64,000 bases of DNA, from positions 2,144,001-2,208,000 of the forward strand of contig CAXXLQ010000004.1 in assembly GCA_963668695.2 (NCBI GenBank), written 5' to 3'. Below the pieces are notes generated by a model. The model saw only the letters and a list, made by a program, of their open reading frames with translations. It was not told the origin of the DNA and did not search any database. Of the stretch, positions 4,466-62,700 are shown piece by piece. Made by a program: the position numbers and the translations under genes. The stretch comes from Vicinamibacteria bacterium (GTDB taxonomy: Bacteria > Acidobacteriota > Vicinamibacteria > Marinacidobacterales > Marinacidobacteraceae). Within the stretch, counting starts at the first letter, position 1. Every line of letters begins with the position of its first letter.

Positions 4466-4717
4466 CAGCCCGTGGATGAAGTGACGTGAGCGCCGAGACC
4501 GGCCAGTTCTCCCGGTGGGGGCGAGGCGCCCGGCTGACAAGACGCGTGAGGGAGGAGCCCCCACCGGGAGAACTGGCCCGAGTGTATTCCGACCGAAACG
4601 CAACGCAGAGCGACGCGAAGCGCCAGTTCTCCCGGTGGGGGGGCGGTTCAGCCGGGATGCATCGCCGGTCGAGCCCCCACCGGGAGAACTGGGCCGCGTG
4701 ACTTTGTCCACAGGCTG
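4466..4717 (-). mobile_element. Family A MITE-like element, 252 bp, 4 inserted modules
   Basis: Terminal inverted repeats CAGCCCGTGG/CCACAGGCTG; abuts CTAG, which supplies the stop codon of 4718-5176. Confidence 0.8.
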
Positions 4718-6011: not shown

Positions 6012-6445
6012 ATCCCCACTGGGTCCGCGCCGGGAGGGTGACCTCCCAGGCGTGGAGCAGCCTGTGGTGAAACCCACGCGGCCCAGTTCTCCCGGTGGGG
6101 GCTCGGCCGGCGATCCACCACCGGCTGTTCACCGCGTCGCTTCGCGCCGCTCATCGTTGCGCTTCGGTCGAAATACACCCGGGCCAGTTCTCCCGGTGGG
6201 GGCTCCTCCCTCGCGCGCCTTGTCAGCCGGGCGCCTCCCCGGCCTCGGCGCTCACGCGGGTTCCACTACAGACTGCTTAACCGACCAGGAAGGACAACAA
6301 CAAGTTGTCGGTGGACGACGGGGACCTGGTGTCGGCCCAACACGCGTATCGGACCTTCACCGAAGACTACCCGTCCGCGGGCGTCGCCGGCCGTCGCTGC
6401 TGAACCAGTGGCCGCTGAAAACGTTCCCCGGCTTGCGCTGACCGG
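5978..6445 (+). pseudogene. Small gene interrupted by a family A MITE
   Basis: ATG 5978 gives MSGATLLWRQVNPHWVRAGRVTSQAW; after the MITE, 6281 resumes PTRKDNNKLSVDDGDLVSAQHAYRTF...SAGV; not in the ORF track; 3' end approximate. Confidence 0.6.
6058..6275 (+). mobile_element. Family A MITE-like element, 218 bp, 2 modules
   Basis: CAGCCTGTGG...CTACAGACTG termini with conserved internal CGTTGCGCTTCGGTCGAAATACAC. Confidence 0.8.
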
Positions 6446-8524: not shown

Positions 8525-8739
8525 CAGCCTGTGAACAAAGTCACGCGGCCCAGTTCTCCCGGTGGGGGCTCGGCTGGCGATGCATCCCGGCTGAACCGCG
8601 CCTCTTCGAGGCGCTCATCGTTGCGCTTCGGTCGAAATACACTCGGGCCAGTTCTCCCGGTGGGGGCTCCTCCCTCGCGCGCCTTGTCAGCCGGGCGCCT
8701 AGCCAGCCTCGGCGCTCACGCTACCTTGTCCACAGGCTG
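8525..8739 (+). mobile_element. Family A MITE-like element, 215 bp, 2 modules
   Basis: CAGCCTGTG...CACAGGCTG followed by TTAA; lies between gcvT and gcvH. Confidence 0.85.
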
Positions 8740-8754
8740 TTAACCGGAGACACG

Positions 8755-9380: not shown

Positions 9381-10441
9381 CTGCTCAGTAGAGGCTGCGC
9401 CGTGCGCCTTCGCGGGACGCAGGGCAGGGAACGCAGGGCAGGGAACGCCGGGCAGTTCTCCCGGTGGGGCCCTTCAGACCGGCACCGCGGCCCGTCGGGC
9501 CGCGAGATCGCGTACGTCTGAGCTGCGTGAAGCGCGGCCGGGGCAGGGAACGCCAGCCATCGCATAGGGGGCCGGCACAGCCCGCCGCAGGCGGGCGGAA
9601 CCGCGTATCGCCGAGTTGCGGGATCTCCCGCACCGCCGTTCCTGCTGAGCTACGCGACGACGCACGCACCACCCCGATGTTTGGCGCTGTTCCCTTTTGC
9701 TGCGCTGTCGCGCAACGGTGCTGATCCCCTACACGCGCACAGGTACAGGGCCGCCACCAGCGGAACGAACGCCCGTTTCCCGGCTCGCGCCGGCGTTGCC
9801 ACCCGGAGGAAAACGGTCAACGGGACGCTCCAACTACGGCAGATTCATTCCGTTCTTGGGGCCCGACGCCTCGTCTCTTCCAAGATGCGGGATTGTGCTG
9901 TGAATTCCCAAGTGTACGGGTTGTGTCACTTGGGCGACCAATCGCGGTCTGGGGATGGGTTGGCGGTGCTCCGTTCCCGGTCCGACGCGTCGTTCTGTGC
10001 CGACTCCGGCGCGCCGGCGGTCTTTGGCGACACTTTTGTCGGCGGAAGGCTTCAGGACCAGGGCGACGGACCCAGTCGGGACCACATCCGACGAACCAGG
10101 TTTCGGCCTGGGGGACGGGAGGAAGCGGTTCTCGGGTGGCCGGCTGGCGGGAAACCCCCGTACCCGAAAGAGCCTTGTTTCCCGGTGCGCGCTCTTACGG
10201 AGAGCAACGATGCGCGTTTCGACTGCCGTCGGCGGTCGGTGAAGGCCCCCACCGGGAAGACTGGCCGGCGTTCCCCGAGATGCCGGTTTTGAGAGCGGAG
10301 CGCCCGCCCCCCTCCCTGATAAAATCCCGGGTCCGGCTGGATGGGCAATGGGCTGGACGATAGTCGGCGGTCAGCCCGGCGGGTCGGAGTTTCCCGGCGC
10401 CGTTCCGGCACTTTGCTGACCCCCACTTCCCCTCAAGTTCC

Positions 10442-13789: not shown

Positions 13790-14231
13790 CAGAGTTTCAT
13801 CACCGGCTGCTAACCGCCGGTGGAAAAACCCACGCGGCCCAGTTGCTGTGAAAATGCAGTTGCGCCGAGCCCCCAACAGGGCGGATGGCGCGCAGGCACG
13901 GGAACGCCGACCTCTGGCCAGTTCTCCCGGTGGGGGCCGGCACGCGCGGGAGCGCGAAACCTGCGCTGGTGACGCCGAGTTCTGCCGACGTGAGTGGCGC
14001 ACCACCTTTTCATGCCGGCGGGGTGAACGGGCCGACCCGATCATGTGGGCTTCTCCCGGTGGGGGCTCGGCCGGCGATCCATCCCGCCTCCGCTTCGCTC
14101 CGTTTCGGTCGAAATACACCCGGCCCAGTTCCCCCGGTGGGGGCTCCTCCCTCGCGCGCCTTGTCAGCCGGACCCCCAGCGGGAGAACTGGCGCTCTCGG
14201 CGCTCACGCGAGTTCCATCACCGGCTGCTAA
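13790..14231 (+). repeat. Mosaic of fragmented family A ends, a REP-like unit and four module copies
   Basis: CACCGGCTGCTAACCGCC occurs at ~13801 and ~14219; partial MITE body 14049-14227. Confidence 0.7.
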
Positions 14232-19870: not shown

Positions 19871-20148
19871 TGCGCGCTCGGCTGAGCGCCGCCAACAGAA
19901 CGTGGTGCGCTCGGCAGGGAACGCCGACCTCCGGGCAGTCCTCCCGGTGGGGCCCGGCACCGCTGCCCGACAGGGCGGCGAAACTCCCGTCGCTATTCCC
20001 CGCGTGGCACCGCGATGAATAGGAGCGCCGGTCTTCAGACATCGCGGCCGAAGGCCGCGAGACTCCCATCGTTGTTCCCTATATGGCACCGCGGTGAATA
20101 GGAGCGCCGGTCTGAAGACCGGCGCTCCCGTTGTACGATCCGGCCGCC

Positions 20149-21003: not shown

Positions 21004-21025
21004 CGGCGGCTTCCCGCCCCGCGCC

Positions 21026-31315: not shown

Positions 31316-31337
31316 CGGCGGCTTCCCGCCCCGCGCC

Positions 31338-32483
31338 GTGATCCCGTCCCAGCGGCATCTCTTCGACATCCCGCGGGACGTCGCCTACCTGAACTGCGCC
31401 TACATGTCGCCAATGCTCAACAGCGTGGTGGAGGCGGGGACCGCCGGCCTCCGGCGGAAGGCGCACCCCTGGGAGATCGCCGTCGACGACTTTTTCGAAG
31501 ACTCGGAGGCGCTCCGCGCCGCCTGGGCGGAACTGCTCGGGGCGGGGCCCGACGCCGTGGCCCTCACCCCCTCGGCGGGCTACGGCCTCTCGCTCGCCGC
31601 GAACAACGTGCCGCTCGCGGCGGGACAGGTGGTCCTGCTCGCCGCCGAGCAGTTCCCCTCGAACGTCTATCCCTGGACCGACAAGGCGCGGCGCGCGGGT
31701 GGCGAGGTCCGCTTCGTCTCGCGCCCCGAGGACGGCGACTGGACGCGGGCGGTGCTCGCCGAGCTCGACGAGCGGGTCGCGGTGGTCGCGCTGCCGAACG
31801 TCCACTGGACCGACGGCGGAATCTTCGACCTCGCGCGGATCGGCGCCCGGGCCCGCGAGGCGGGGGCGGCGCTGGTGGTGGACGCCACCCAGTCGCTCGG
31901 CGCGCTGCCGTTCGACGTGGGCGCCATCCAGCCGGACTTCGTGGCCGGCGCGGGCTACAAGTGGCTCATGGGCCCTTACTCGCTCGGCTACCTCTACGCC
32001 GCGCCCCACTGCCGGGAGGCGGCGCCCATCGAACACAACTGGATCCAGAAGGCGAACGCGCGCGAGTTCTCGCGCTTGGTGGACTACACCGAGGACTGGC
32101 AGCCGGGCGCGCGCCGCCTCGACGCCGGGGAGCGTTCCAACTTCGCGCTGGTGCCGGCGGCGCTGGCGGCGGCCCGCCAGGTGCTCGACTGGGGCCCGGC
32201 GAACATCCTCGGGACGATCGGCCCGATGACCCGGCGTCTCGCCGCAGCGGCGGCGGAACTCGGCTTCACGTCCGGGCACACCGAGCGCCGGTCTCCCCAC
32301 TACCTGGCGCTCGGGCTCCCGCTGGGGAGCGGGCCCGAGGATCTCTCCCGGGTGCGCGCGGCGCTCTCCGAGCGGCGGGTGTTCGTGAGCATCCGCGGCG
32401 ACACCGTGCGGGTGACCCCGCATCTCTACAACGACGAGCAGGATCTCGACGCGTTCATCGACGCGCTCGGGTCCGCGTTGTAG
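31338..32483 (+). CDS. Class V PLP-dependent aminotransferase / cysteine desulfurase-like
   Basis: YLNCAYMSP, VVDATQSLG, PLP-Lys AGYKWLMGP, RVTPHLYN. Confidence 0.92.
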   Translation: MIPSQRHLFDIPRDVAYLNCAYMSPMLNSVVEAGTAGLRRKAHPWEIAVDDFFEDSEALRAAWAELLGAGPDAVALTPSAGYGLSLAANNVPLAAGQVVLLAAEQFPSNVYPWTDKARRAGGEVRFVSRPEDGDWTRAVLAELDERVAVVALPNVHWTDGGIFDLARIGARAREAGAALVVDATQSLGALPFDVGAIQPDFVAGAGYKWLMGPYSLGYLYAAPHCREAAPIEHNWIQKANAREFSRLVDYTEDWQPGARRLDAGERSNFALVPAALAAARQVLDWGPANILGTIGPMTRRLAAAAAELGFTSGHTERRSPHYLALGLPLGSGPEDLSRVRAALSERRVFVSIRGDTVRVTPHLYNDEQDLDAFIDALGSAL

Positions 32484-32716
32484 CAGCCTATGGACAAAGT
32501 CACGCGGCCCAGTTCTCCCGGTGGGGGCTCGACCGGCGATCCATCCTGGCTGAAACGCTCGGCTTCGCCTAACTCATCGTTGCGCTTCGGTCGAAATACA
32601 CTCGGGCCAGTTCTCCCGGTGGGGGCTCCTCCCTCGCGCGCCTTGTCAGCCAGGCGCCTCACCGCCAGTTCTCCCGGTGGGGGTCTCGGCGCTCACGCCA
32701 CTTTGCCCAACGGCTG
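32484..32716 (+). mobile_element. Family A MITE-like element, 233 bp, 3 modules
   Basis: Starts right after the TAG stop; ends CGGCTG then CTAG. Confidence 0.85.
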
Positions 32717-32732
32717 CTAGGCCAGCCATCCG

Positions 32733-34698: not shown

Positions 34699-37047
34699 TC
34701 AGGTTTCCCCCGGTCGGGCCATGCGGTAGCCAACCCCACGCACGGTGTGGACGTAGGCGGGGCGGCTCGCGTCGTCGCCGAGCTTCTGGCGCAAACGCTT
34801 GATGACGGCGCGCACCAGCTTCGCGTCGCCGGAGTTCCGCTCGTTCCACACCTGGCGCAACAGCGAATCGTACGTCGAGACCCGTCCCGCGTTGAGCGAG
34901 AGCACGCGCAACACGCCGTACTCGGTCGCCGTGAGTTCGATCTGGCGCCCCGCCACGCTCACCCGGCGCCGGTCGTAGTCGATCGCGAGATCGCCCCGTA
35001 TGAACGGGTCGGGGTCGGTGCGGCGGCGAAGCGCCGCCTGGATCCGGGCCGCGAGTTCGGTCGGCGAAAAGGGCTCGACGATGTAGTCGTCGGCGCCGGC
35101 CTCCAGCGCCTTGGCGATGGTCTCGTCGCGCCCGTACCCCGAGATGAAGATGACCGGAAGGTCGGAGAGCCCGGGCACGGTTTCCATCAACTCGATGCCG
35201 TCGGTCCCGGGCAGGATCAGATCGAGCAGGACCAGCGCCGGCTCCTCCGTCTCGATGATGCGCGCCAGCTCGCGATGGTCGCCGGTGACCAGCGGCGCAT
35301 AGCCCGCATCGACGAGCGCGTCCCGCACGTAGCGCAGCAGCTGCGGGTCGTCTTCCACCACGAGTATCCGCGCCCGCTCCCCGGTCTCGCGGAGCACTCC
35401 CGCCCGGCGCCGCGTGAGGCCGGGCGCGGTGCTCTCCGCCTCCGCCACCGGGACCGTGAAGGTGAACCGCGCCCCTTGCTCGGGGCCGGCGCTCTCCGCC
35501 CGGATCCGTCCGCCATGCGCCTCGACCAGCCCCTTGCAGATGGCGAGCCCCAGGCCGCCCCCCACGCCGCGCTTCCCATCTTCGGCAGCGGCGTACTTGC
35601 GGAAGAGGTGCGGCAGCCTCTCCCGCGCCACCCCCCGGCCTTCGTCGGAAACCGAGACCGCGACGTACATGCCGTCGCGCTCCGCCGAGACCCGGATGGA
35701 CGAGGAGTCCGGAGAATGCCGGGCGGCGTTGGCCAGGAGGTTGCTCAGCACCTGCACAATGCGGTGCCGGTCGGTCAGCGCCCGGGGCAGGTCCGGCGGC
35801 AGTTCGATCAGCACCGGGTGCCTGGCGCCGCCGGCAAGGAACATGGTCCGCGCCTCGTCCACCAGCGCACCCACCTCCGTGGGCTCGGGCGAGACCGACA
35901 ACGTGCCCGTCTCGATGCGCCCCACGTCGAGCAGGTCGCCGATGAGTCCGCTCATGCGGTCCGCCTGCTCGTCAATGATGCGGAAGAACTGCTGGGTCTC
36001 GGCCGGACCGAAGCCTCGACCGGCGCCGAGCACCGTGGCCGTTGAACCCTTGATGGCGGCGAGCGGCGTGCGCAGCTCGTGGCTCACCATGCCGAGGAAC
36101 TCAGCCCGCATCCGCTCCAGCGCTTCGAGCGGCGCGAGATCCTGCAGGGTGACGACCACGGATTCGACCTCCCCATCATCCCCGGCGTGGATCGGGGTGG
36201 CGTTGACGAGCGTCGTGACGCTGCGTCCGTCGGGCGTCGAGAGCACGATCTCCTCGGCGCGCACGGTCTCCGCGGCGCCGAGCGCGGCCGAGAGCCGCAA
36301 TTGGTCGAGCGCAATCTCGCGTCCATCGCCACGCCGGCAGGTGAGGACCCGAAGCAGCGCTTCGGCGGGGTGGCCCGGCATGCGCAGGCTCTCCACGATG
36401 CGCCTCGCCTCGCGGTTGAGCGAGACGGCGTGGCCAGTCCGCGCATCGAACACCACGACGCCGACCGGCGAGGTCTCGACCAGCGCCTCGAGGTCGGCCC
36501 GCGCGCGCCGCTCGTCGCGGAAGGCGCGGGCGTTGGCGATGGCGCTCGCGGCCTGCGAGGCGAACAGCACCAGGACCTCCTCGTCCCCACTCGTGAACTC
36601 CGCTCCCCCTTCCTTCTCGGCCAGATAGAAGTTGCCGACATGCACGCCGCGATGGCGCATCGGCGTGCCCTGGAAGGTGCTCGACGAGAACCGGTCCGTA
36701 GAGAAGCCGAGCGAGCGCACGTAGGCGGGGACGTCGCTGAGCCTCAGCGGCCCCGCGAGGTCGCGCAAGTGCTCGAAGAGCCGCGGCCCGTCGGGCCACT
36801 GGGCCAGCCGGCGATGCTCTTCCTCCGTGAAACCGGAGGTCACGAAGTCCTGCGGCGCGCCCTTTTCGTCGATGGTGACGATGGTGCCGTAGCGGGCGCC
36901 GGTCAGCGCCCGGGCGCTCTCCACGATCTCGCGGAGAACCGTTTCGAGGTCGAGGCTCGCGCTGATGCGCAGGAGCGCCGCGCTCAAGGTGGAGACGCGC
37001 TCGTCCGGTCCCTTGTTCTTCCGTCCCGCTTCGTCGTGACCGTTCAA
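34699..37047 (-). CDS. Hybrid sensor kinase: GAF-PAS-HisKA-HATPase-REC-OmpR-type winged helix
   Basis: VSHELRTPL, NLLANA, DEGRG, GLGLAICK, ILVVEDD, LLDLILP, LRQKL...HTVRGVGY; TTG start after GAGGAGG. Confidence 0.9.
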   Translation of the reverse strand: MNGHDEAGRKNKGPDERVSTLSAALLRISASLDLETVLREIVESARALTGARYGTIVTIDEKGAPQDFVTSGFTEEEHRRLAQWPDGPRLFEHLRDLAGPLRLSDVPAYVRSLGFSTDRFSSSTFQGTPMRHRGVHVGNFYLAEKEGGAEFTSGDEEVLVLFASQAASAIANARAFRDERRARADLEALVETSPVGVVVFDARTGHAVSLNREARRIVESLRMPGHPAEALLRVLTCRRGDGREIALDQLRLSAALGAAETVRAEEIVLSTPDGRSVTTLVNATPIHAGDDGEVESVVVTLQDLAPLEALERMRAEFLGMVSHELRTPLAAIKGSTATVLGAGRGFGPAETQQFFRIIDEQADRMSGLIGDLLDVGRIETGTLSVSPEPTEVGALVDEARTMFLAGGARHPVLIELPPDLPRALTDRHRIVQVLSNLLANAARHSPDSSSIRVSAERDGMYVAVSVSDEGRGVARERLPHLFRKYAAAEDGKRGVGGGLGLAICKGLVEAHGGRIRAESAGPEQGARFTFTVPVAEAESTAPGLTRRRAGVLRETGERARILVVEDDPQLLRYVRDALVDAGYAPLVTGDHRELARIIETEEPALVLLDLILPGTDGIELMETVPGLSDLPVIFISGYGRDETIAKALEAGADDYIVEPFSPTELAARIQAALRRRTDPDPFIRGDLAIDYDRRRVSVAGRQIELTATEYGVLRVLSLNAGRVSTYDSLLRQVWNERNSGDAKLVRAVIKRLRQKLGDDASRPAYVHTVRGVGYRMARPGET

Positions 37048-37388
37048 CCGTCCGCCCTCCTCGCGCCGAGCCCGGACGTCGTTCCGGTCCGTCCGGACCG
37101 TCCGGACCCGGAACGAGCGGCGAGATGGGGTTTTCGGGCCGGTCCGGTGCGCCCGTCGCACAGTGAAGGCCAAAATCGCATAATCGTCACTCTATCTCCA
37201 GCAAAATGCACGTTCTTGTCGGGTACACTCTCCGCAGGTTCACGACCTGATGGTTTGGTGGGCCAAGACGAGGTGTCCGGATGCACCAAGGAAGATATCG
37301 AAGGCCTTTACGGGCGGAAGTCCACGCCCGTTCCCGCGGTCTTCCGAAACCGGCGCCGGTGGGCTTGAGCGAGTAGCCGGCGGGACGC

Positions 37389-37742
37389 ATGGACGCTGGG
37401 AGTCTCGCGTGCGCCGTGGATCACGAGGTGATCTACCGGTTCATGGACGGGTACCGGGGACAGCACCGAATCGCCACCATGGCCCGCACGCTCGGAGTCT
37501 CGCGGAGCGGTTACTACGCTTGGAAGAGTCGTCCCCAAAGTTGCCGCGCCCGGGTGGACGAGCTTCTCAAGCAGGAGATCCGCAGCGTCCACGCCTGCCA
37601 TCACGGCGAGTACGGCGCGCCTCGAATCCACGGGGAACTGCGGGTGCAGGGATGGCGGGTGGGGCGCAAGCGGGTTGCCCGACTGATGCGGGAACTTGGA
37701 ATCGACGGTCTTTCCGGAAGCTCGCGCCGAACCCGAAGGGCC
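37389..37742 (+). mobile_element. IS3-family transposase OrfB 5' remnant
   Basis: LGVSRSGYYAW...YGAPRIHGEL...VGRKRVARLMRELGI; no DDE domain, truncated by the repeat array. Confidence 0.88.
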
Positions 37743-38526
37743 AAACAGCCGGTGGTGGAACCCACGCGGCCCAGTTCTCCCGGTGGGGGCTCGGCCGGCG
37801 ATCCATCCCGGCCAAACAGCCTGTAATGAAACCCGCGCGGCCCAGTTCTCCCGGTGGGGGCTCGGCCGGCGATCCATCCCGGCCAAACAGCCGGTGATGA
37901 AACCCACGCGGCCCAGTTCTCCCGGTGGGGGCTCGGCCGGCGATCCATCCCGGCTGAACCGCGTCGCTGCGCGCCGCTCATCGTTGCGTTTCGGTCGCAA
38001 TACACCCGGGCCAGTTCTCCCGGTGGGGGCTCCTCCCTCACGCGCCTTGTCAGCCGGGCCCCCACCGGGAGAACTGGCCCCACCGGGAGAACTGGGCCTC
38101 GCCGGCCTCGGCGCTCACGCGGGTTCCACCACCGGCTGTTCACCGCGTCGCTTCGCGCCGCTCATCGTTGCGTTTCGGTCGAAATACACCCGGGCCAGTT
38201 CTCCCGGTGGGGGCTCCTTCCTCACGCGCCTTGTCAGCCGGGCCCCCACCGGGAGGACTGGCCCCACCGGGAGAACTGGGCCTCGCCGGCCTCGGCGCTC
38301 ACCCGGGTTCCACCACCGGCTGTTGACCGCGTCGCTTCGCGCCGCTCATCGTTGCGTTTCGGTCGAAATACACCCGGGCCAGTTCTCCCGGTGGGGGCTC
38401 CTCCCTCACGCGCCTTGTCAGCCGGGCCCCCACCGGGAGGACTGGCCCCACCGGGAGAACTGGGCCTCGCCCCCACCGGGAGAACTGGCCGGTCTCGGCG
38501 CGCACCCGGGTTCCACCACAGGCTGC
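37743..38526 (+). repeat. Amplified family A element: 3 x 71-bp left part plus 3 x 184-bp right part, about 13 modules
   Basis: AAACAGCC at 37743/37814/37885; module at 38012/38196/38380; ends CCACAGGCTG-CTAA. Confidence 0.88.
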
Positions 38527-38743
38527 TAACCAGCCCGGTTTGCCAGCGCGGTTTCGCAAACCGCGCGGCGCCGACCGCGCAAAAACGCGGCCGGGCACCG
38601 CATTCCCCGGGGAGATCCCCCGGGGAGAACTGCCCCGGAGGCGGGTCGGCGTCCGGTGGCCGGCCGCGCTCCTGCTCCACCGGCGTTCCCTCCCCGGCGG
38701 GGCCATCGAGCGAAGCGAGATGGCCCCGCCGGGGAGGGATTCC

Positions 38744-55409: not shown

Positions 55410-55940
55410 GTGACCGACGCCGACCGCGCCGCCGCCCGCCGCATCGTCCGCACCGCCTTCTTCATCGGCGGGGCGATCTTCGCCTTCATCATCTGGCAGC
55501 TCTACCTGCGGCCGCCCGCGACCTCGGTCCCGGAATGGACCGCGTCGCTTCCCGCGATGAATGCCGCCTTCAATGCGACGACCACCACCCTCATCTGCCT
55601 GGGCGTGCTCGCGATCAAGAACGGCCGCCGGCGCCTCCACATCGGGTTCCAGATCGCCGCGCTGGTATCCGCCGCCCTTTTCCTCGTTGGCTATCTCACC
55701 TACCACCACTTCCAGGGCGACACCCCGTATCCCGGGACCGGCTTTTGGCGCCCCATCTACTTCTTCTGCCTGATCACCCACGTCCTGGCTTCCGCCGTCT
55801 CGGTGCCGCTCATCCTCGCGACGGTGTCGTTCGCCGCGAAACGCCGGTTTTTCTGGCACCGCCGCTGGGCGCGGGTTACCGTTCCCGTCTGGCTGTACGC
55901 ATCGCTGACCGGCCTGATCGTGTACGGAATGCTGCACTAA
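55410..55940 (+). CDS. DUF420 membrane protein
   Basis: LPAMNAAFN, FLVGYLTYH, YFFCLITH, HRRWARVTVPVWLYASLTG. Confidence 0.9.
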   Translation: MTDADRAAARRIVRTAFFIGGAIFAFIIWQLYLRPPATSVPEWTASLPAMNAAFNATTTTLICLGVLAIKNGRRRLHIGFQIAALVSAALFLVGYLTYHHFQGDTPYPGTGFWRPIYFFCLITHVLASAVSVPLILATVSFAAKRRFFWHRRWARVTVPVWLYASLTGLIVYGMLH

Positions 55941-56013
55941 AGGTCGAGCGGTCCGGAACCGGGGCCAACATCCGGCAATCTGAGACACCGCCCTCGACCG
56001 GGCTTGTCCCTAG

Positions 56014-56192
56014 CAGCCTGTGGCAAAACCCACGCGGCGTTCGACCGGCGATCCATCCCGGCTGAACCACTCCGCTTCGCTGCGTTCTGCGTTGCGTTTC
56101 GGTCGAAATACACCCGGTATTCCTCCCTCACGCGCCTTGTCAGCCGGGTGCCTCACCGGCCTCGGCGCTCACGTGGGTTTCACCACAGACTG
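56014..56192 (+). mobile_element. Family A MITE-like element, 179 bp, no modules
   Basis: CTAG-CAGCCTGTGG...CCACAGACTG-CTAA; otherwise near-identical to 61918-62151. Confidence 0.88.
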
Positions 56193-56265
56193 CTAAGTTT
56201 CCGGTCTGCTCGCGCCGGAGAGTTGTTTCGACGCTCCCGGCGGAGTCGCAACAAGGAGTTGTCCC

Positions 56266-56838
56266 ATGTCCCGAATCACATTCCTCGCCGCGCTGCTCGC
56301 CGCGGCCTTCGCGCTGCCGGCAGCCGCCCAGAACCCGAACCCGCGGGGTACGGTGAAAGCCGATGCCGGCGGCGCCATGGTCTCGATCGACTACGGCCGC
56401 CCGGCCCTCGGCGACCGGATGCTCGGCGACCTGCTCAGCATGCTGCCCGGGGACCGGGTCTGGCGAGCCGGTGAGAACCAGGTCACCATCCTCGAGACCT
56501 CGGCGCCGCTGAAGATCGGCACCGAGACCGTGCCGGCGGGCCGCTACAGCCTCTATCTCCACGTTCCGGAGAACGGCGATTGGCATCTGCTCGTCAACCG
56601 GCACCAGGGCATCGCGCTTGGCGAGCTCTGGTCCGAGGCGCCCGCTGCGATGCGCGCCGAGCCCTGGCCCATGCTCAGCGGATACGGCCAGATCGAGGAC
56701 CAGGAGCAGGCCCGGATCGCGCTCGAGGGGGCGGAGACCTCCGGCGACGGGAACGTCTTCGAGATCAGCGCCGGAAGCGGAATGATCCGTTTCTCCTGGG
56801 GCGGAACCGCCTACCAGACGACCCTCGGGTCTCCCTGA
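56266..56838 (+). CDS. DUF2911 exported protein
   Basis: VSIDYGRP, VWRAGEN, VPAGRYSLY; signal peptide; RBS AAGGAG. Confidence 0.85.
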   Translation: MSRITFLAALLAAAFALPAAAQNPNPRGTVKADAGGAMVSIDYGRPALGDRMLGDLLSMLPGDRVWRAGENQVTILETSAPLKIGTETVPAGRYSLYLHVPENGDWHLLVNRHQGIALGELWSEAPAAMRAEPWPMLSGYGQIEDQEQARIALEGAETSGDGNVFEISAGSGMIRFSWGGTAYQTTLGSP

Positions 56839-56887
56839 CGGGGGCTCGGGTCTCCCTGCCGGCGGCTCGGGTCTCCCTGCCGGCGGC
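56824..56887 (+). repeat. 21-bp tandem repeat (about 3 copies) spanning a stop codon
   Basis: CTCGGGTCTCCCTG recurs with period 21. Confidence 0.85.
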
Positions 56888-56962
56888 GGCGCGCCGGGCG
56901 GCCCGGCGCTCCCCGCTTCGGGAACGGATCGTGCGAGAGCGCGTTTTGTCTTCCCGAAGCAC

Positions 56963-57613
56963 ATGGCCCCCGCAACCCTGAACCCGGCGATCCCCTTCGC
57001 CGCCTCCGGCCCGGGTGCGGTTGCGCTCGACTCGGACGCCGCCCTCATGGCGCGGGTCCAGGAGGGTGACCTCGACGCCTTCGAACCCCTCGTCCACCGC
57101 TACGAGAAACGTCTGTTCGGGTATTTCCTGAACCTCGTCGACGATCCCTCGACGGCCGCCGATCTGGCGCAGGAGACCTTCGTCCGCGTCTATCGGGCGG
57201 CCCCGCGCTACCAGGAGTCCGGCAGGTTCGAGTACTGGCTCTTCCGGATCGCCGCGAACCTGGTCAAAAGCCGGCGGCGCCGCCCGGACCAGCGGGCCCC
57301 GCACGTGTCTCTCGAAGAGGCGCCGGCCGCCGAGCGGGAACTCGCGGGCCGCAGTACCCAGGGCCGTCCGGATGAAGCCGCCTGGCGGGCGGAACTCCGG
57401 GACGCCCTTCAGGAGGCGTTGCCCCGGGTGCCGCTGGTGTTTCGGGAGGCCGTCCTGCTCCGCGACGTGGAGGGATGGACCTACCGCGAAATCGCGGAGA
57501 TGCTGGGCGTCCAGGAAGGGACCGTGAAGTCCCGCGCCCACCGGGGCAGACAGCGCCTCAAGGAGATGCTGGCCCCGATGTTTGGAGAAGGCTGTTTCGA
57601 GGGAGTTTCCTGA
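56963..57613 (+). CDS. ECF-type RNA polymerase sigma factor
   Basis: DLAQETFVRVY, WLFRIAAN, YREIAEMLGVQEGTVKSRAHRGR. Confidence 0.93.
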   Translation: MAPATLNPAIPFAASGPGAVALDSDAALMARVQEGDLDAFEPLVHRYEKRLFGYFLNLVDDPSTAADLAQETFVRVYRAAPRYQESGRFEYWLFRIAANLVKSRRRRPDQRAPHVSLEEAPAAERELAGRSTQGRPDEAAWRAELRDALQEALPRVPLVFREAVLLRDVEGWTYREIAEMLGVQEGTVKSRAHRGRQRLKEMLAPMFGEGCFEGVS

Positions 57614-58116
57614 TGGCTGGCAGACCCACCGACGACGAGCTGCGCGAGATGCTGCGAGCACTGCCGCGTCACGAACCGCTTCCCGGCTTCGCCGAGGAGG
57701 TCATGGCCCGCGTGCGCGCGGAAGACCGGCGTCGCCGCTTCCGGCCCTGGCTGCTCGCCGCCGCGGCGGCGGCGCTGGTCGCGTCGGGACTTCTGGTCCG
57801 CTCCGTCTGGGACGGGTCGTCTTCCGGGAACGAGGAAACGCTCGTCGCGACCGCCCCCGCGCCGGATGGGGCGATGGATTCCGCCGATGCCGACCGCCGC
57901 GAGTTCGAGGCGATCCTCGAGGAGTACCGGCTCCTCGCCGAGGAGTTCGAGTCGCTCCGGCAACTCGGTGGCGACTCGCCGAACGGCCCGCTGATCCGGG
58001 TCGGCGGCAACGACGATCTGGACCTGTTCCTGGATCTCGAGTCGTATCTCGACCGCCCGTCCCGTCCGCCGGGCGCGTCCCTCGTGGTCCCCGCCGCGAA
58101 CCGTCCGCGCCGGTGA
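57613..58116 (+). CDS. Putative membrane-anchored anti-sigma factor
   Basis: TGATG coupling to the sigma gene; P..GFAEEVMARV then a transmembrane helix. Confidence 0.8.
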   Translation: MAGRPTDDELREMLRALPRHEPLPGFAEEVMARVRAEDRRRRFRPWLLAAAAAALVASGLLVRSVWDGSSSGNEETLVATAPAPDGAMDSADADRREFEAILEEYRLLAEEFESLRQLGGDSPNGPLIRVGGNDDLDLFLDLESYLDRPSRPPGASLVVPAANRPRR

Positions 58117-58144
58117 CCTGCTCACTTCCAAGGAGAAATTGACG

Positions 58145-58867
58145 ATGACGATGAACCGCAATCGCTTCCGCGCCGCCGCGCTGGCGGCCGCTACCGCCCT
58201 CGCCTTGCCGGCGCTCGCCGGCGCCGCCAACGGGCCGTCGCGCGAAAACCCCCACCAGATCCTCGTGCGTGGGCCGATCAAGACCCGGGTGGTCATGGGC
58301 TCGGTGGGACGTGGGTACCTGGGCGTCCAGTTGCTGGACATCACCGAGGAACTGCGCGAGTTCTACGGTGCCCCGAAGGATGCCGGGATCCTGATCTCGC
58401 GGGTGGCCGCCGACAGTCCGGCGGCAGCCGCCGGGTTTGAGGTCGGCGACGTGATCACCGGGGTAGGCGGCGAACGGGCGCACACCTCGCGGGATGTCAT
58501 GCGTGAGGTGGCGCGGTTCGAGCCGGAAGACCAGGTCGCGGTGGAGGTCATCCGCGCGGGTGCTCCCCTCACCGTGAACGCCACGCTCGGCGAACGGGAG
58601 CGAGGCGTGTGGTTCAGCCGCGATTTCGGCGAACCCGAACTCCAGGAATTTCACTTCGAGATGCCTGAGATGCAGGGTCTCGAGGTGCTGCGGGACCTCC
58701 CGAGCACCATCAATGAGGCAACCCGGGAGGCGGTGCGGGAGGCGATGGAGGCAGCCCGCGAGCGCATGAGCGAGATCGATTTCGAGGGACTTAAGGAGCG
58801 CCTCGCGGAAACCGAAGCGCGCCTCCGCGAACTGGAGAAAAAGCTCGCGGAACGTCGGGAGGAGTAG
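58145..58867 (+). CDS. Exported PDZ-domain protein with C-terminal coiled coil
   Basis: GYLGV, DSPAAAAGFEVGDVI; signal peptide. Confidence 0.88.
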   Translation: MTMNRNRFRAAALAAATALALPALAGAANGPSRENPHQILVRGPIKTRVVMGSVGRGYLGVQLLDITEELREFYGAPKDAGILISRVAADSPAAAAGFEVGDVITGVGGERAHTSRDVMREVARFEPEDQVAVEVIRAGAPLTVNATLGERERGVWFSRDFGEPELQEFHFEMPEMQGLEVLRDLPSTINEATREAVREAMEAARERMSEIDFEGLKERLAETEARLRELEKKLAERREE

Positions 58868-58899
58868 GAGCGCCGGTGTTCACACCGGCATCAAGTCCG

Positions 58900-59135
58900 G
58901 AGCGGTCCGGGGATGGGGGCACTTCTCCCGACAAGTCCAAATCACACAGATTGGGACCGGTAGGCCCCCATCCCCGGTCCGCCCGGCGCTTCGCGCCGGG
59001 AATCGGACCTCCCTTGCGCGCCTTCGGCGCGCGGCGGCGAGTTCCGATTGGTCGTTACCTTTTGTGAAAGGGGGGATGCTCCCCTTTCACACTTTCCCCC
59101 CGGTCATGCGGGCAGCGAACAGAGTTCGCTGCCGT
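58900..59135 (+). repeat. Family B repeat
   Basis: Stem GGGGATGGGGGC/GCCCCCATCCCC; loop related to 54839-54882. Confidence 0.85.
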
Positions 59136-59314
59136 TAGTTTTTGCGTGTGGCTGCGCCGTGTGCTCGTGCGGGACGCAGGCCCGGGAACGCCGGTCTTCA
59201 GACCGGCACCCGCGGCCCGTAGGGCCGCGAACGGCGAAGACCCCGACGGGTCGGATGGCACGCCACAAAGGGAAGGCTTACCCTCCGCCGTACACCCCAC
59301 TTCGGGAGGTCTCC

Positions 59315-60562
59315 ATGCCCCGCACCCCGTTCTCCCCCCTCCTCCGTCCCCTCGGCTTCGAGTGCTACCCGTCCGGCCTCGGCCCGAGCCGCCGCGCCTT
59401 CTTGCAAGCCGTCGCTGCCACCGCGGCGGGCGCGGCGACTGCTGGCGCCCTCCCCGGATGTGACACCGCGCCCGGCGCGCAGGATGCCGCCCCGGCCCCG
59501 GCGGCGAGTGCCGCGGATGTCCTGAATTCCGTCCCGACCTTCCCCGAGGGAGGCTTCGCCGAGGGCGCCGTCCGGATCGGCTTCAACGAGAACCCGCTCG
59601 GACCGTCCCCCAAGGCGCTCGCCGCCATCGCGGCCGACGGCCTCGCCGCCGGGAACCGCTACAACTACCCCGACACCGTCCGCGGCGAGATCGGAGCCCA
59701 CCACGGCACCACCCGCGAACACGTCCTCGTCGGCTGCGGCTCGACCGAGTTCCTGCAGTTCCTGCCCTGGGGCTTCCTGAAGCCGGGCACGACCAGCCTC
59801 GTCCTGCCGGAGATCACCTACGGTTGGTGCGGCGGGGTGGCGGCGGCGATCGGCGCCGAAGTGATCCGCACCCCGATGGGGGCGGAGGGAACGCTCGATG
59901 TCGCGGCGATGCGCGGCGCCATCCGTCCCGACACCCGGATCGTCTACGTCGCGAACCCCAACAACCCGACCGGAGCGGCGGTGTCCCACGACGAGATCGT
60001 CTCGCTGGCGGAAGCCGTGCCCGAGGGCGGGATCCTCATCGTGGACGAGGCCTACGCCGAGTTCCTCCCCGAGGGTGGAGACGCGGTGTCGCTGGCGCTC
60101 GCCGGCGGACCCGTCATCGTGGCCCGGACCTTCTCCAAGGCGTACGGAATGGCCGGCCTCCGCATCGGCTACGTCGTGGGCTCCGGCCCGATGTTCGAAA
60201 AGGCGACCGGCGTCTGGTGGGGCGACTTCGGGCTGAACACCGCGGCGGCGGTCGCCTGCGGACCGGCCCTCGCCGACCGGGACCACGTCGCGAAGTACGT
60301 GCAGACGGTGGACGACGGCCTTGCCGAGCTGCGCGCCGGGCTCAGCGAACTCGGCTGCGTCTCCTGGCCGCACCGGGCGCCCTTCCTGATGACGGATCTC
60401 GGGAGCGAAGCCCTTCCGGTGGTCTGGGAGCTCTTCCGGCGCGGGATCTACGTGCAGGACGGTGCCGGCTGGGGTCTTCCGACCTTCCTCCGGATCTCGG
60501 TGGGCCTCTCGGAGCACCACCAGGCGCTCCTCGGCGCACTCCGGGAAATCCGAACCGCCTGA
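59315..60562 (+). CDS. HisC-like class I/II aminotransferase with Tat/lipoprotein leader
   Basis: SRRAFLQ, LPGC; NENPLGPS, NPNNPTG, VDEAY, RTFSKAYGMAGLRIGY. Confidence 0.88.
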   Translation: MPRTPFSPLLRPLGFECYPSGLGPSRRAFLQAVAATAAGAATAGALPGCDTAPGAQDAAPAPAASAADVLNSVPTFPEGGFAEGAVRIGFNENPLGPSPKALAAIAADGLAAGNRYNYPDTVRGEIGAHHGTTREHVLVGCGSTEFLQFLPWGFLKPGTTSLVLPEITYGWCGGVAAAIGAEVIRTPMGAEGTLDVAAMRGAIRPDTRIVYVANPNNPTGAAVSHDEIVSLAEAVPEGGILIVDEAYAEFLPEGGDAVSLALAGGPVIVARTFSKAYGMAGLRIGYVVGSGPMFEKATGVWWGDFGLNTAAAVACGPALADRDHVAKYVQTVDDGLAELRAGLSELGCVSWPHRAPFLMTDLGSEALPVVWELFRRGIYVQDGAGWGLPTFLRISVGLSEHHQALLGALREIRTA

Positions 60563-60683
60563 CACCAGGAGCCCGGCCTGATCGCCTTCTGTGGAAAATC
60601 CGCTACGCGAGCCATGGCGTGCATCGACATCCCTTCGCACAGCATGGCGAAGACCTGAGTTGGGTAGCTTGTTCATGGCGATT

Positions 60684-60757
60684 AGGTTGACAACCTCCCG
60701 GAAATGGTTGACAATAATGCTATAATAAGTTTCCAGCGTCAACAGTAAGGTTGTCAA
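60684..60757 (+). promoter_or_regulatory. Promoter region with repeated GGTTG(A/T)CAA operator-like sites
   Basis: Palindrome AGGTTGACAACCT 60684-60696; related sites at 60706 and 60748; TATAAT at 60721. Confidence 0.6.
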
Positions 60758-60769
60758 AAGGAGAGAGCG

Positions 60770-61804
60770 ATGACTGGAGTCCGCGCCCGAGGCGAGAAGA
60801 TCAGGCGCTTCATTCTTGAGCGTGTGGAGAAATCTCCGGGCGATGTGGTGAAAGCAACATCCGCGAAGTTTGGGATCACCCGACAAGCGGTCAATAAACA
60901 CCTTCGGCGACTTCGTGCCGAAGGTGTCCTTCGTCGAACAGGTAACACCCGCGCCAGCGCTTATCAGCTGGCTCCATTATCGCAATGGGAGTACACCTGC
61001 CGGATTGAGCCAGATCTGGCGGAAGATGTTGTATGGATGCGTGAGGTTAGGGGCGCTCTGGGCGACTTGCCAGACAACGTTCGAGAAATCTGGCAGTATG
61101 GTTTCACCGAGATGTTTAACAATGCAATTGATCACGCGGATGGCACGCACATTGGGGTTCAGATGATAAAGACCGCCGCTACCACAGAAATGATGATTTA
61201 TGACGATGGATACGGCATCTTCAAGAAGATTCAAACTGCAATGGGCTTGTTGGATGCACGACACGCGATCCTGGAGCTCTCAAAGGGGAAGCTAACAACC
61301 GACCCGACGCATCATACTGGTGAAGGCATTTTCTTCTCCTCCAGGATGTTTGATCTCTTCGACATCGTTTCCGAAGGGGTTTACTTTTCTCACGAATTCG
61401 AAGGTGCAGAAGACTGGATCATCGAAGGAGACAAGAAGTCCAAGGGAACAGCTGTGTGGATGAGGCTGAATAACCACACGGCAAGAACAACCAAAAGTAT
61501 TTTTGACCAATACAATTCCGGTGATGACTACGGATTCACAAAAACAGTTGTTCCGGTGAGAATGGCCCAATACGGGGAAGACAAGCTTATTTCCCGCTCG
61601 CAAGCAAGACGAGTACTGGCCCGCGTAGAGTTATTCAAGACCGTTCTATTCGACTTCACAGAAGTTGAAACCATCGGCCAAGCTTTTGCAGATGAGATAT
61701 TCCGCGTATTCGCCATGCAGCATCCAGAGATCCAGTTGGTTCCGATTCACGCGAACTCGGAGACGAAGAGGATGATTGCAAGGGCAACACGAGGGAGCGA
61801 GTGA
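60770..61804 (+). CDS. HTH + HATPase-like + STAS-like (DUF4325) protein
   Basis: FGITRQAVNKHL; TEMFNNAIDH, DDGYG, GEGIFFSS; LISRSQARR...FDFTEVETIGQAFADEIFR; lower GC. Confidence 0.88.
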   Translation: MTGVRARGEKIRRFILERVEKSPGDVVKATSAKFGITRQAVNKHLRRLRAEGVLRRTGNTRASAYQLAPLSQWEYTCRIEPDLAEDVVWMREVRGALGDLPDNVREIWQYGFTEMFNNAIDHADGTHIGVQMIKTAATTEMMIYDDGYGIFKKIQTAMGLLDARHAILELSKGKLTTDPTHHTGEGIFFSSRMFDLFDIVSEGVYFSHEFEGAEDWIIEGDKKSKGTAVWMRLNNHTARTTKSIFDQYNSGDDYGFTKTVVPVRMAQYGEDKLISRSQARRVLARVELFKTVLFDFTEVETIGQAFADEIFRVFAMQHPEIQLVPIHANSETKRMIARATRGSE

Positions 61805-61917
61805 CGATAGGGAAACGCGATCCCAATCGTGTGCGCGCGGCTGTTGGCGGCGGGAGAAAAGCGCGGTCGGCAGCTCAGGTGCGGGCTCATCGCGGCGGGT
61901 TCGACTACTGTCCTTAA

Positions 61918-62151
61918 CAGCCTGTGGCAAAACCCACGCGGCCCAGTTCTCCCGGTGGGGGCTCGACCGGCGATCCATCCCGGCTGAACCACTCCGCTTC
62001 GCTGCGTTCTGCGTTGCGTTTCGGTCGAAATACACCCGGGCCAGTTCTCCCGGTGGGGGCTCCTCCCTCACGCGCCTTGTCAGCCGGGCGCCTCGCCCCC
62101 ACCGGGAGAACTGGCCAACCTCGGCGCTCACGCGGGTTTCACCACAGGCTG
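61918..62151 (+). mobile_element. Family A MITE-like element, 234 bp, 3 modules
   Basis: TTAA-CAGCCTGTGG...CCACAGGCTG-TTAA (perfect 10-bp TIR, TTAA on both sides). Confidence 0.9.
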
Positions 62152-62154
62152 TTA

Positions 62155-62276
62155 ACGGTTGCAGCATCCCTCCCTTGGATCGCGTCTCGGAGCGGCACTA
62201 TCTGTCCCGTCGTCTGCCGGACGATCTGGAAGGCGCGCTGATTCCAGTCGCGCGGTCGGGATGGGGTTCGTGACAT
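62155..62276 (-). pseudogene. Small-protein 5' fragment cut by the MITE
   Basis: MSRTPSRPRDWNQRAFQIVRQTTG resembles the RPRDxNQ small proteins seen near mobile elements; resemblance only. Confidence 0.35.
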
Positions 62277-62364
62277 ACCGGCACCGTGGCAGGGTCCGTA
62301 GGTCACGTCAACCCCCGCAGAATTCAAACTGAGCCACTACCTTCTAATCCACCTTCTTTCCCTC

Positions 62365-62700
62365 AGAGCCGTCGAAGGTAGATGAAGGACAGAAGGAGAG
62401 CTAGCGAAAGCGGAACCAGGTTTCCGCCGATCATCCACCGCTCCATCCTCTCCAGCGGCTATTCCGGAAAGGCCCACCACAACGCCAGGTTGAAGCAGAG
62501 TGATCTGGCCGCGGCGGCAACCATGAACCACCCTGACGCGCGATTGGCCGGATACCAGACCTCCGGAGACGAAAGGGTTTTTGGCGTCCTGAAGCCAAAT
62601 ATGCGGTTGGGGGACCTTGCCCAGGATCATCGGTATGGACGACGCCAAGACCACTAGCGGAACGACGTAGCCGAGCAGGTGTTGGCCATATTCCCTCCAA
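62365..62700 (-). pseudogene. SdpI-family membrane protein, frameshifted
   Basis: Joined frames read IPMILGKVP/NRIFGFRTPKTLSSPEVWYPANRASGW; frameshift in a C-run and an in-frame TAG. Confidence 0.65.

Follow-up and report, generated by a model that had tools for sequence, protein, structure and literature searches.

How does a word of some twenty nucleotides come to lie, unchanged, at dozens of places inside other repeats? The question was raised by a window of 64,000 nucleotides from a Vicinamibacteria bacterium (genome G000), in which a preliminary description had counted by hand about 40 copies of a 21-nt module in both orientations. This count was borne out: the 16-mer core CAGTTCTCCCGGTGGG had 41 matches at ≤2 mismatches, spread over both strands from 2940 to 63402 (31 exact, six with one mismatch and four with two), whereas 100 shuffles averaged 0.11 matches and never exceeded 1. 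Genome-wide counting, which the same description had recommended as a check, gave 1,659 matches in 4.1 Mb (1,325 exact, 271 with one mismatch and 63 with two), 840 on the plus and 819 on the minus strand. The module is indeed a fixed short unit, but its invariant part is a 20-mer, CCAGTTCTCCCGGTGGGGG followed by C, T or G, and the two preceding bases are the target's own. Upon entry, target bases are swapped out as had been claimed, the range being 1-3 bases where 2-3 had been given as usual, with a net gain of 18 nt at most sites or 19 nt. The junction tables contained neither terminal inverted repeats (TIRs) nor a target site duplication (TSD), target bases being replaced instead; these features and the lack of coding capacity agree with what had been noted before. 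The module did not fold into a hairpin (-3.4 kcal/mol, z = 0.43), by contrast with the REP-A palindrome discussed below, and Rfam models had 0 matches to the window at gathering scores. Read in the inverted direction, the core contains a Shine-Dalgarno-like GGGAGAA.

Identical modules were found at identical sites in at least 15 species whose genomes had been assembled independently, and it is therefore very unlikely that the module is an assembly artefact, a concern raised at the outset. The contigs from public runs that could be placed break at the MITEs, so that individual junctions cannot be confirmed from those contigs. The core is perfectly conserved over four genera at 2 to 1,600 copies per genome, with approximate module counts of 1,600 in G000, 800 in G004, 267 in G018 and 72 in G019, and with 52, 20 and 10 modules in the low-copy genomes G006, G010 and G012, respectively. 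Altogether the module occupies at least 17 different sites, distributed over four or more repeat families that are unrelated, and 80 of 188 flank contexts have both empty and filled alleles, the inserted 20-mer being always the same.

Although the copies lie mostly in repeats, the earlier view that they are confined essentially to intergenic and repeat DNA does not hold for one module outside the window, which occupies unique coding DNA: it lies in frame within an AcrB-family gene that is intact. This site is filled in G000 and G001 and empty in five of seven aligned genomes, the match to the gene is 18 nt shorter in 13 of 15 other genomes of the genus (as judged by match length), and the flanks of the insertion have no MITE homology. 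The insertion is derived in the G000/G001 lineage, indicating that true de novo installation of the module occurs; it is the one polarised de novo event documented in unique DNA. Together with the at least 17 sites, this gain supports the claim that a fixed oligonucleotide is installed at new places, and together with the ortholog and occupancy data it contradicts a history in which all modules are ancestral and only losses took place.

Most of the ~1,650 copies are secondary rather than independent insertions: they travel with a MITE, here called MITE0, and are swapped between its copies, as indicated by site-specific variants and co-varying flank SNPs. MITE0 is a classical bacterial MITE (~185 bp, TIRs of ~21 bp, ~700 copies), and 1,094 of the 1,659 modules lie within MITE0 matches at five or six fixed sites. 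Because most modules occupy these sites, the lengths of MITE0 form a ladder; the ladder first noticed in the window is true genome-wide, with 394 full-length copies clustering at ~185, 203, 221, 239, 257 and 275 bp (measured including short flanks), in steps of 18 bp. At site S1 the empty GGC-GT-TC becomes GGC-CCAGTTCTCCCGGTGGGGGC-TC, and at site S3 the empty CCCGG-TAT-TCC becomes CCCGG-GCCAGTTCTCCCGGTGGGGGC-TCC; the alleles quoted initially, empty at 56014-56192 and filled at 61918-62151, proved exact, including the third, inverted copy at 62095-62114.

Occupancy of the MITE0 sites was near-combinatorial, with 30 of 32 patterns present among 303 scorable copies. It was almost uncoupled from backbone similarity: pairs with a backbone distance below 1% differed at 1.37 of five sites, versus 2.03 in random pairs. 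Occupancy varied among copies sharing 97-99% identity, and orthologous MITEs varied too (three modules versus none). Across 283,630 nt of duplicates that are 96-99.9% identical, eight canonical presence/absence differences were found, some of them accompanied by clustered flank SNPs. Variants were tied to sites, single modules at S4a having a GT end and copies at S2 a GGGGGG end, and a CAGTCC variant was concentrated at S4a and S4b. A true deletion (C4:3818864) left a non-canonical remnant, unlike the canonical empty allele, and head-to-tail module doublets had a period of 18 nt. The features of the window are collected in the table.

Table. Modules, host repeats and element X in the window (positions counted from its first nucleotide)
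Feature	Position	Strand
MITE0 without module; empty GGC-GT-TC, CCCGG-TAT-TCC and CTC-ACC-GGC	56014..56192	+
MITE0 with three modules; G004 ortholog 179 bp with none	61918..62151	+
S1 module, 20-mer in place of GT	61943..61962	+
S3 module, G + 20-mer in place of TAT	62041..62060	+
S4b module, inverted, net +19	62095..62114	-
MITE0 with four modules; cores at 4504, 4560, 4624, 4676	4466..4717	-
MITE0 with two modules (S1, S3)	6058..6285	+
MITE0 with two modules; G004 ortholog has an extra third at S4a; no MITE at the orthologous place in G001 and G008	8525..8745	+
MITE0 with three modules; orthologous sites of G001, G004 and G008 without the MITE	32484..32717	+
Array of partial and tandem MITE0 units, 13 modules including 18-nt head-to-tail doublets	37740..38530	+
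Fourteenth match, two mismatches, just beyond that array	38617	
Element X, non-coding, no TIR, within an S1 module	13845..14050	+
Module nested in that X copy	13918-13937	
Split module, left half GGCCCAGTT	13836..13844	+
Split module, right half TTCTCCCGGTGGGGGC	14051..14066	+
REP-A palindrome, empty; 7-bp stem, 4-nt loop	59189..59207	.
Further empty REP-A copies	20105, 45156, 49719, 54790, 58871	
Module in 5' arm of REP-A palindrome	9452..9471	+
Other REP-A modules (cores)	2940, 10248 (- strand), 16857, 16997, 55241	
Module in REP-B type repeat, site d	19935..19954	+

The preliminary description had suggested a search for a longer element whose joined ends give the module. Such an element, X, was found; it is ~230 bp long, non-coding, and its flanks together make up the module, which it splits between CCAGTT and CTCC. 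Of 41 right ends of X, 27 adjoin a module half, as do 13 of 17 left ends. The module is thus either the empty target of X or the joined ends of X. X occurs at S1, S3, S4b, REP-A and REP-B, that is, at the module's kinds of sites, and its copies are older and more diverged (70-94% identity). Modules outnumber X by ~40 to 1 in G000, and X-left junctions with CAGTT compare with whole modules as 38 versus 20 in G010, 75 versus 52 in G006 and 14 versus 10 in G012.

The module has its older host in the 5' arm of the hairpin-forming REP-A palindrome, which carries it in the low-copy genomes. In sister species, the locus syntenic with the window holds a RAYT-like HUH gene with REP-A palindromes on its flanks (six upstream and 11 downstream in G010, six and nine in G001). 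That no candidate enzyme is visible in the window is true for G000, where, as in G004, G018 and G019, no Y1_Tnp (Y1 HUH) gene was found, but this does not extend to the syntenic locus of the sister species. The repeats on either side of the gene in relatives are REP-A or REP-B and not the module, of which a single copy lies near it across eight loci. Since G010 has the gene yet carries only 20 modules, presence of the enzyme does not track copy number; the four genomes in which the gene was not found carry from 72 to ~1,600 modules. IS110, an installer named earlier as a candidate, was not supported, the sole family present targeting a different repeat, REP-B.

Targets of IS200/IS605 elements have conserved bases directly 5' of the insertion, and insertion into single-stranded DNA of the lagging strand is expected to produce a replichore bias. 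The module resembles these elements in having no TIR and no TSD and in inserting at a defined short sequence, and X acts as a site-specific element directly after CCAGTT, its 5' neighbour being recorded as always CCAGTT. In contrast, the 20-nt module is too small for two subterminal hairpins, its 5' neighbours are not conserved (GG, GC, CG or CC), and it has no strand or replichore bias; for 110 copies in REP-A, with replichores assigned by GC skew only, orientation gave an odds ratio of 1.01 (p = 1). We also know of no HUH signature that consists in the loss of 1-3 target bases.

Small dispersed repeats (SDR1-8) of Nostocaceae, 21-27 nt long, were reportedly described by Elhai et al. in 2008. 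As far as the excerpted text of PMC5861425 treats these repeats, which are also cited in PMC3116915, they appear to be the closest known kind, a precedent overlooked when no described element of like behaviour was said to be known. Judged by those excerpts, both are tiny, high-copy and non-coding (a 20-mer with 1,659 copies in our case), both are nested in MITEs or other repeats with the same site empty and filled, and for both mobility is deduced from paralogs and orthologs of a site that are filled in some cases and empty in others, with the enzyme known for neither. The module differs in its host (Acidobacteriota, Vicinamibacteria, not Cyanobacteria), in its G+C-rich sequence, provisionally taken as unrelated to SDR1-8, in having no hairpin and replacing 1-3 target bases, and in being linked with REP/RAYT surroundings and with the element X that splits it.

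IS elements that target REPs are said to have been described by Tobes and Pareja in 2006. According to the portions of PMC3116915, PMC3337134, PMC3733652 and bioRxiv 2021.07.10.451892 that concern REP and REPIN-RAYT systems, the likeness extends to short extragenic repeats that number in the hundreds, vertical inheritance within a clade, repeats serving as targets of other elements, and an HUH gene in single copy with its repeats on both sides, as in the sister species. By the same portions, the module differs in being non-palindromic and inserted into REP-A, which flanks the RAYT-like gene instead, and the highest-copy genome, G000, has no RAYT; a cognate single-copy, repeat-flanked RAYT gene was not found there, the search for Y1_Tnp having given no match. 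Classical bacterial MITEs, as outlined in part of the review PMC3184786, include the host MITE0, with its TIRs of ~21 bp, ~185-bp length and hundreds of copies, whereas the module is about ten times smaller and has neither TIR nor TSD.

We tentatively propose, with a confidence somewhat short of an even chance, that the module is a lineage-specific tiny insertion unit that was installed by an HUH/RAYT-type activity and then spread passively on MITE0. Of this, occasional de novo installation at a new site is shown, with 1-3 bases replaced and no target duplication, and the module has entered five or six sites of the abundant 185-bp MITE0. MITE0 transposition copies the module and homologous exchange (gene conversion) shuffles it among the ~700 MITE0 copies, the two processes together giving rise to the 18-nt ladder and the near-combinatorial occupancy. 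The installer may be an HUH/RAYT-type enzyme that cuts and joins single-stranded DNA and acts on REP-A and X, and the module may be either an empty site after resealing or the ends of X joined together. The gene of this enzyme would have been lost from G000 and kept at the syntenic locus in the sister species, and the copies in G000 would now spread only passively. Several results weigh against the proposal: the four module-bearing genomes without a match to a Y1 HUH gene, the mere 20 modules of G010, the REP-A or REP-B flanks of the RAYT-like gene, the failure of the module to fold, its variable 5' neighbours, the even orientation across replichores, the loss of 1-3 target bases, and the single polarised event in unique DNA.

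It is possible, if rather doubtful, that the mobile entity was instead X plus the module halves (CCAGTT...TTCTCCCGGTGGGGGC), which entered a new site and from which the inner part was then precisely removed to leave the 20-mer, such that every founding module would be a footprint of X and not a separately inserted oligonucleotide. The site kinds shared by X and the module, the excess of CAGTT junctions over whole modules in low-copy G010, G006 and G012, and the greater age and divergence of X are consistent with this, but there are ~40 modules per X in G000, and the in-frame AcrB-family insertion would require a gene-breaking 230-bp intermediate. Furthermore, an unsystematic look found no orthologous pair of sites with X in one and the module in the other, and no enzyme for precise excision was identified. 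That there was no independent insertion at all, the modules being segments of MITE and REP subfamilies that are old and variable, with presence/absence differences due to inheritance, deletion and gene conversion, seems very improbable. It is contradicted by the derived AcrB-family gain in flanks without MITE homology, and the single 20-mer at at least 17 unrelated sites, the 18-nt-period doublets and the non-canonical remnant of the real deletion all argue in the same direction, even if the site-specific variants, the co-varying flank SNPs at some polymorphic MITEs and the handful of sites that holds most copies would suit it.

A perfect core across four genera with 2 to 1,600 copies, an even strand frequency and a density that we take to resemble that of uptake sequences might also point to a selected recognition word (an uptake-type signal or a protein binding site) maintained by molecular drive or selection. 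We regard this as very improbable, as copies arise by 18/19-nt indels rather than point mutations, their distribution tracks the MITE0 copies, and no binding or uptake factor is known for the word. Templated addition, by a reverse transcriptase or otherwise, in which the module is copied into breaks from a template of RNA or DNA, had been suggested by the preliminary description and would agree with a fixed inserted sequence, tandem repeats of 18-nt period and the loss of few target bases, which is also seen in target-primed reactions. However, RVT_1 had no match in any of the five genomes searched (G000, G004, G008, G010 and G018), no Rfam family was found in the window and no master template locus was found, making this route very improbable.

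An unlikely but far-reaching reading is two-step writing, in which a small HUH-mobilised X would sometimes take its flanking target halves along to a new place, excise precisely and leave behind the fixed 20-nt word. If this were true, the cell would stamp a defined oligonucleotide at new loci, including in-frame additions of six codons to genes, and the stamped word would be a fresh landing pad for X, amplified by any MITE that it had entered. Such a target site would propagate itself, and no element of this kind is known to have been described in bacteria.

The modules total ~33 kb of the 4.1-Mb genome and are too small for repeat finders and annotation pipelines; they make hundreds of intergenic repeats vary in length, and an efflux-pump gene has become six codons longer through one of them. 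To our knowledge, there is no second such system besides the SDRs of cyanobacteria, for which we know of no mechanism reported since 2008. Beyond what SDRs provide, the present system has a clade whose genomes range from ~10 to 1,600 copies, a genic insertion of established polarity, REP/RAYT surroundings and an element X that cuts at one exact bond, and these handles make the installation of a 20-nt sequence directly testable.

In the window, the 16-mer core of the module, CAGTTCTCCCGGTGGG, was found at 41 positions with at most two mismatches, 31 of them exact, against an expectation of 0.11 in shuffled window sequence, bearing out the roughly 40 copies of the preliminary description. The genome-wide count that it proposed, run on the source genome G000 (4,095,246 bases in four contigs, 67.5% G+C), yielded 1,659 matches, of which 1,325 are exact, with 840 on the plus strand and 819 on the minus strand. 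All 15 genomes sampled from the same genus carry the core, with 10 to ~800 copies apiece, as do 22 of 24 from the family; 16 genomes belonging to two other families of the order gave only single hits, mostly with one mismatch. The module word is restricted to one family. An Rfam search of the window found no family.

The 24-nt flanks of the module copies were clustered into 235 contexts, and the same flanks joined together were then sought genome-wide; short flanks were used because single linkage on 156-nt flanks put 538 of the 565 copies outside MITE0, the main host MITE, into one cluster. Empty counterparts were recovered for 80 of 188 flank contexts. In every empty/filled pair, the inserted piece is invariant, consisting of CCAGTTCTCCCGGTGGGGG followed by C, T or G, and it takes the place of either a single base (net +19) or two to three (net +18). 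The net +19 sites are the palindrome REP-A, the MITE0 site S4b and site d of REP-B, another repeat type holding modules, with an empty allele that is mostly GGT; the net +18 replacements are GT at S1, GC at S4a and S2, AT at S1b, TAT at S3 and GT at site c. Target bases are not duplicated, inverted terminal repeats are lacking, and the bases immediately 5' of the insertion point are variable (GG, GC, CG or CC). The module alone does not fold into a hairpin (-3.4 kcal/mol, z = 0.43), and its interpretation as the palindromic footprint of an inverted-ended transposon was rejected because it is not palindromic. The inverted module includes GGGAGAA, a Shine-Dalgarno-like word.

With a 179-bp copy free of modules as the query, nhmmer returned 725 MITE0 hits in G000, chained into 723 elements, 394 of them full length. 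The terminal inverted repeat of MITE0 is CAGCCTGTGGTGAAACCCACG. Element lengths as measured cluster at ~185, 203, 221, 239, 257 and 275, and the length ladder first noticed in the window holds genome-wide with an 18-nt step. Modules inside MITE0 hits account for 1,094 of the 1,659 matches. Pairwise alignment to the empty copy showed that insertions fall at a few fixed positions, and anchored extraction resolved these into clean two-state sites: S1 is empty in 191 copies (179 reading GGCGTTC) and filled in 123 of 317 scorable, S3 is empty in 208 and filled in 156 of 376 scorable, S4 is empty in 175 with filled forms of +18, +19, +36 or +37, and the filled form of S2 is +18. Modules also form head-to-tail doublets that repeat every 18 nt. 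The MITE alleles, empty and filled, given in the preliminary description were found letter for letter in the window. Genome-wide, MITE0 orientation is mildly associated with the replichore, assigned by GC skew (OR 1.6, p = 0.002).

REP-A is the older module host. In the low-copy genomes G007, G010, G012 and G016, the module mostly stands in the context ...GGAGCGCC-GG[module]-CTTCAGACCGGCA, the empty form of which is the REP-A palindrome, folding with a 7-bp stem and a 4-nt loop. The window holds six empty REP-A copies and several filled ones, and no replichore bias of module orientation was found in REP-A contexts.

One copy stands in unique coding DNA, within an intact gene of the AcrB/AcrD/AcrF family (1,051 residues, 802 bits). 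In a seven-genome alignment, the inverted 20-mer replaces the central CG of the palindrome CCCGCGCGGG in G000 and G001 and is absent from G008, G004, G013, G012 and G007. Over the same 901 bases, the match falls 18 nt short of G000 in 13 of 15 further genomes of the genus and 6-7 nt short in G009, and it is 12 nt longer in G001. The reading frame is kept (+18), and the flanks have no MITE0 similarity. This copy is a polarised, derived gain and shows that installation of the 20-mer at a fresh site does occur. In contrast to the placement essentially only in intergenic or repeat DNA given in the preliminary description, this copy lies in a gene. A second unique-site candidate (G000:C4:3267756) lies within a ~125-nt lineage-specific intergenic insert, so it provides no clean module gain.

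Searching for half-modules uncovered X, an element interrupting the module at a single bond, CCAGTT|CTCC. The right half TTCTCCCGGTGGGGGC frequently comes after ...GACCCGATCATGAGGGT (28 places), and TGCTGTGAAAATGCAG frequently comes after the left half CCAGT, with an end-to-end spacing of 140-370 nt. The interior of X is non-coding, 70-94% alike between copies and usually includes a REP-A or REP-B unit; no inverted ends were found in X. In a scan independent of the module, module halves adjoin 27 of the 41 right ends of X and 13 of its 17 left ends. Further out, X is bordered by sites at which modules usually occur (S1, S3, S4b, REP-A and REP-B). The module is hence either a specific target into which X inserts or a junction of X ends, left behind or taken along by the element. 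A longer element of the kind envisaged in the preliminary description, whose joined ends would give the module, has therefore been found, with the landing site as the other reading. X-left junctions are confined to this genus (present in 11 of 13 further genomes sampled from it and in 0 of 12 from six other genera), and they outnumber whole modules in G010 (38 vs 20), G006 (75 vs 52) and G012 (14 vs 10). X was rejected as a gene start, as the frames from the ATG beside GGGAGAA run for 11-469 codons and are not conserved, and as a structured RNA or DNA, given a fold z-score of -0.07. Beside X, this ATG stands 6-7 nt after the GGGAGAA of the inverted module.

Coordinates of individual features (window positions, or genome, contig and position)
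Feature	Location	Strand	Remarks
X copy	window 13845-14050		inside S1 module of a MITE0 copy; only one in window
Hybrid sensor kinase, 824 residues	window 34699-37173	-	GAF, PAS, HisKA, HATPase, receiver, Trans_reg_C
Module copy in unique coding DNA	G000:C4:~394436		twin on C1
IS110-family element	L162-L171 (G004, G008); G000:C4:~482100-483900		

Several observations bear on how the copies multiplied. Module sequence variants are site-specific: single modules at S4a terminate in GT (a form with 76 copies), those at S2 in GGGGGG (55), and the CAGTCC variant is concentrated at S4b and in the distal member of the doublets at S4a. Occupancy over five MITE0 sites is nearly combinatorial and hardly tracks the MITE backbone, with 30 of 32 patterns present among the 303 fully scorable of the 394 copies, and with a mean of 1.37 site differences in 94 pairs of <1% backbone distance compared to 2.03 in random pairs. 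Near-identical duplicates within G000 (C1 and C3 against parts of C4, and C4 end against end; 96-99.9% identity) gave ten difference rows over 283,630 aligned bases and 103 modules, which we read as eight canonical presence/absence differences, located at S3, S4a and one REP-A site, one 1-nt deletion and one 15-nt internal deletion, the last leaving a non-canonical remnant unlike the canonical empty allele. One polymorphic MITE carries six further substitutions clustered within ~100 nt, a gene-conversion signature. Between species, the presence/absence polymorphism for which the preliminary description had proposed a test was seen: MITE0 61918-62151 has three modules and its G004 ortholog none, with flanks 97-98% identical and a backbone different at two positions, and MITE0 8525-8745 has two modules against three in G004. 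Module occupancy thus turns over rapidly between homologous copies. Since variants are site-specific, occupancy is combinatorial and near-identical duplicates differ, the bulk of copies are not independent insertions; together with the cross-species differences, these data fit frequent exchange between MITEs plus copying by MITE transposition, and simple subfamily inheritance of modules does not fit them. Among public runs, six contain 92-95% of the sampled words of 55800-62400; in three of these, X9, X10 and X14, the listed contigs cover the unique parts of this interval and deviate in 0-7 letters each, all of them ending at the edges of the two MITEs (e.g. 61940/61941, 62128).

Contigs C1, C2 and C3 and both C4 ends (C4:13629-148038 vs C4:3783325-3913787) are copies of other C4 parts, 92-99.9% identical, and probably represent haplotypes of different strains or an assembly overlap left unresolved, and not plasmids, in agreement with a CheckM-type contamination of 9.3%. 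A ~23-kb tandem array at G000:C4:2803874-2826790 (period ~351 nt, units 90-94% identical) presumably represents one very large repetitive gene. Window 20129-21330 and 30441-31642 are two copies of a 1.2-kb segment, which matches the same places in G001, G004 and G008.

As to the responsible enzyme, the preliminary description had named reverse transcriptase, IS110, HUH and recombinase genes. Its RT-type templated addition found no counterpart, as a search for RVT_1 (reverse transcriptase) matched none of five genomes. IS110 is present and unrelated: the family element is 2.1 kb long, with one copy in G000, truncated at its left end, and 10 each in G004 and G008, where Transposase_20 gave 10 hits each, 5-7 of them in 437-aa frames. 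It ends in TATACC...GAAGGTC and enters the REP-B hairpin at GGAGGTC|GGCG, sometimes adjoining a module; because it targets REP-B and its ends are unrelated to the module, it was rejected as the module source. A search for IS91-type Y2 transposases matched none of five genomes, and the control genomes were also without a match.

The Y1 HUH family gave no match in G000 and has hits in relatives. Neither the PF01797/Y1_Tnp profile nor a RAYT-like protein of G001 as the query matched G000, G004, G015, G018 or G019, and a RAYT was consequently rejected as a resident enzyme of G000; of 15 further genomes of the genus, 13 gave one or two weak Y1_Tnp hits, all above the cut-off. One of the two hits in G001, and likewise in G008, lies at the locus syntenic to window ~34.5-38.7 kb, and from their coordinates we place the hits of G010 and G014 there too. 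The RAYT-like protein has 270-279 residues, a Y1_Tnp score of 38 bits, and an HVH motif with a downstream tyrosine as putative catalytic motifs. Its gene is surrounded by REP-A arrays in G010, with 6 units upstream and 11 downstream, and at the second copy in G001, where the numbers are 6 and 9; in G008 it is flanked by REP-B. This arrangement is the classical one of RAYT systems, and sister species thus have a REP/RAYT neighbourhood. In the syntenic interval of G000, a hybrid histidine kinase and a MITE0 array with 13 modules are found instead. Around the RAYT-like gene at L175 (G010:C1:750013-753243) and L179 (G001), the REP-A units are regular (periods 80, 85 and 111 nt), and on the opposite strand the arrays contain long open frames of proline-rich repeats that gene callers may take for proteins. 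At window 37650-37745, a reading frame ending ...GRKRVARLMRELGIDG is cut short by the MITE0 array; it resembles the start of an IS3-type integrase region, and a Pfam search of this 215-residue frame found nothing.

We hypothesize that an HUH-type single-strand nuclease installs, or once installed, the module, that its gene may have been lost from G000, and that present-day spread in G000 would be passive. This proposal is weakened because the RAYT-like gene and module copy number are uncorrelated, the 5' neighbour is not conserved and there is no strand bias. Small dispersed repeats of Nostocaceae were reportedly treated by Elhai et al. 2008. They are the nearest described kind to the module. 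The study on them is cited in PMC3116915 and mentioned in PMC5861425. A literature search of limited scope returned no relevant description of such an element in the present bacteria. On this basis, the module would be a further form of an already known, mechanistically unexplained kind of element.
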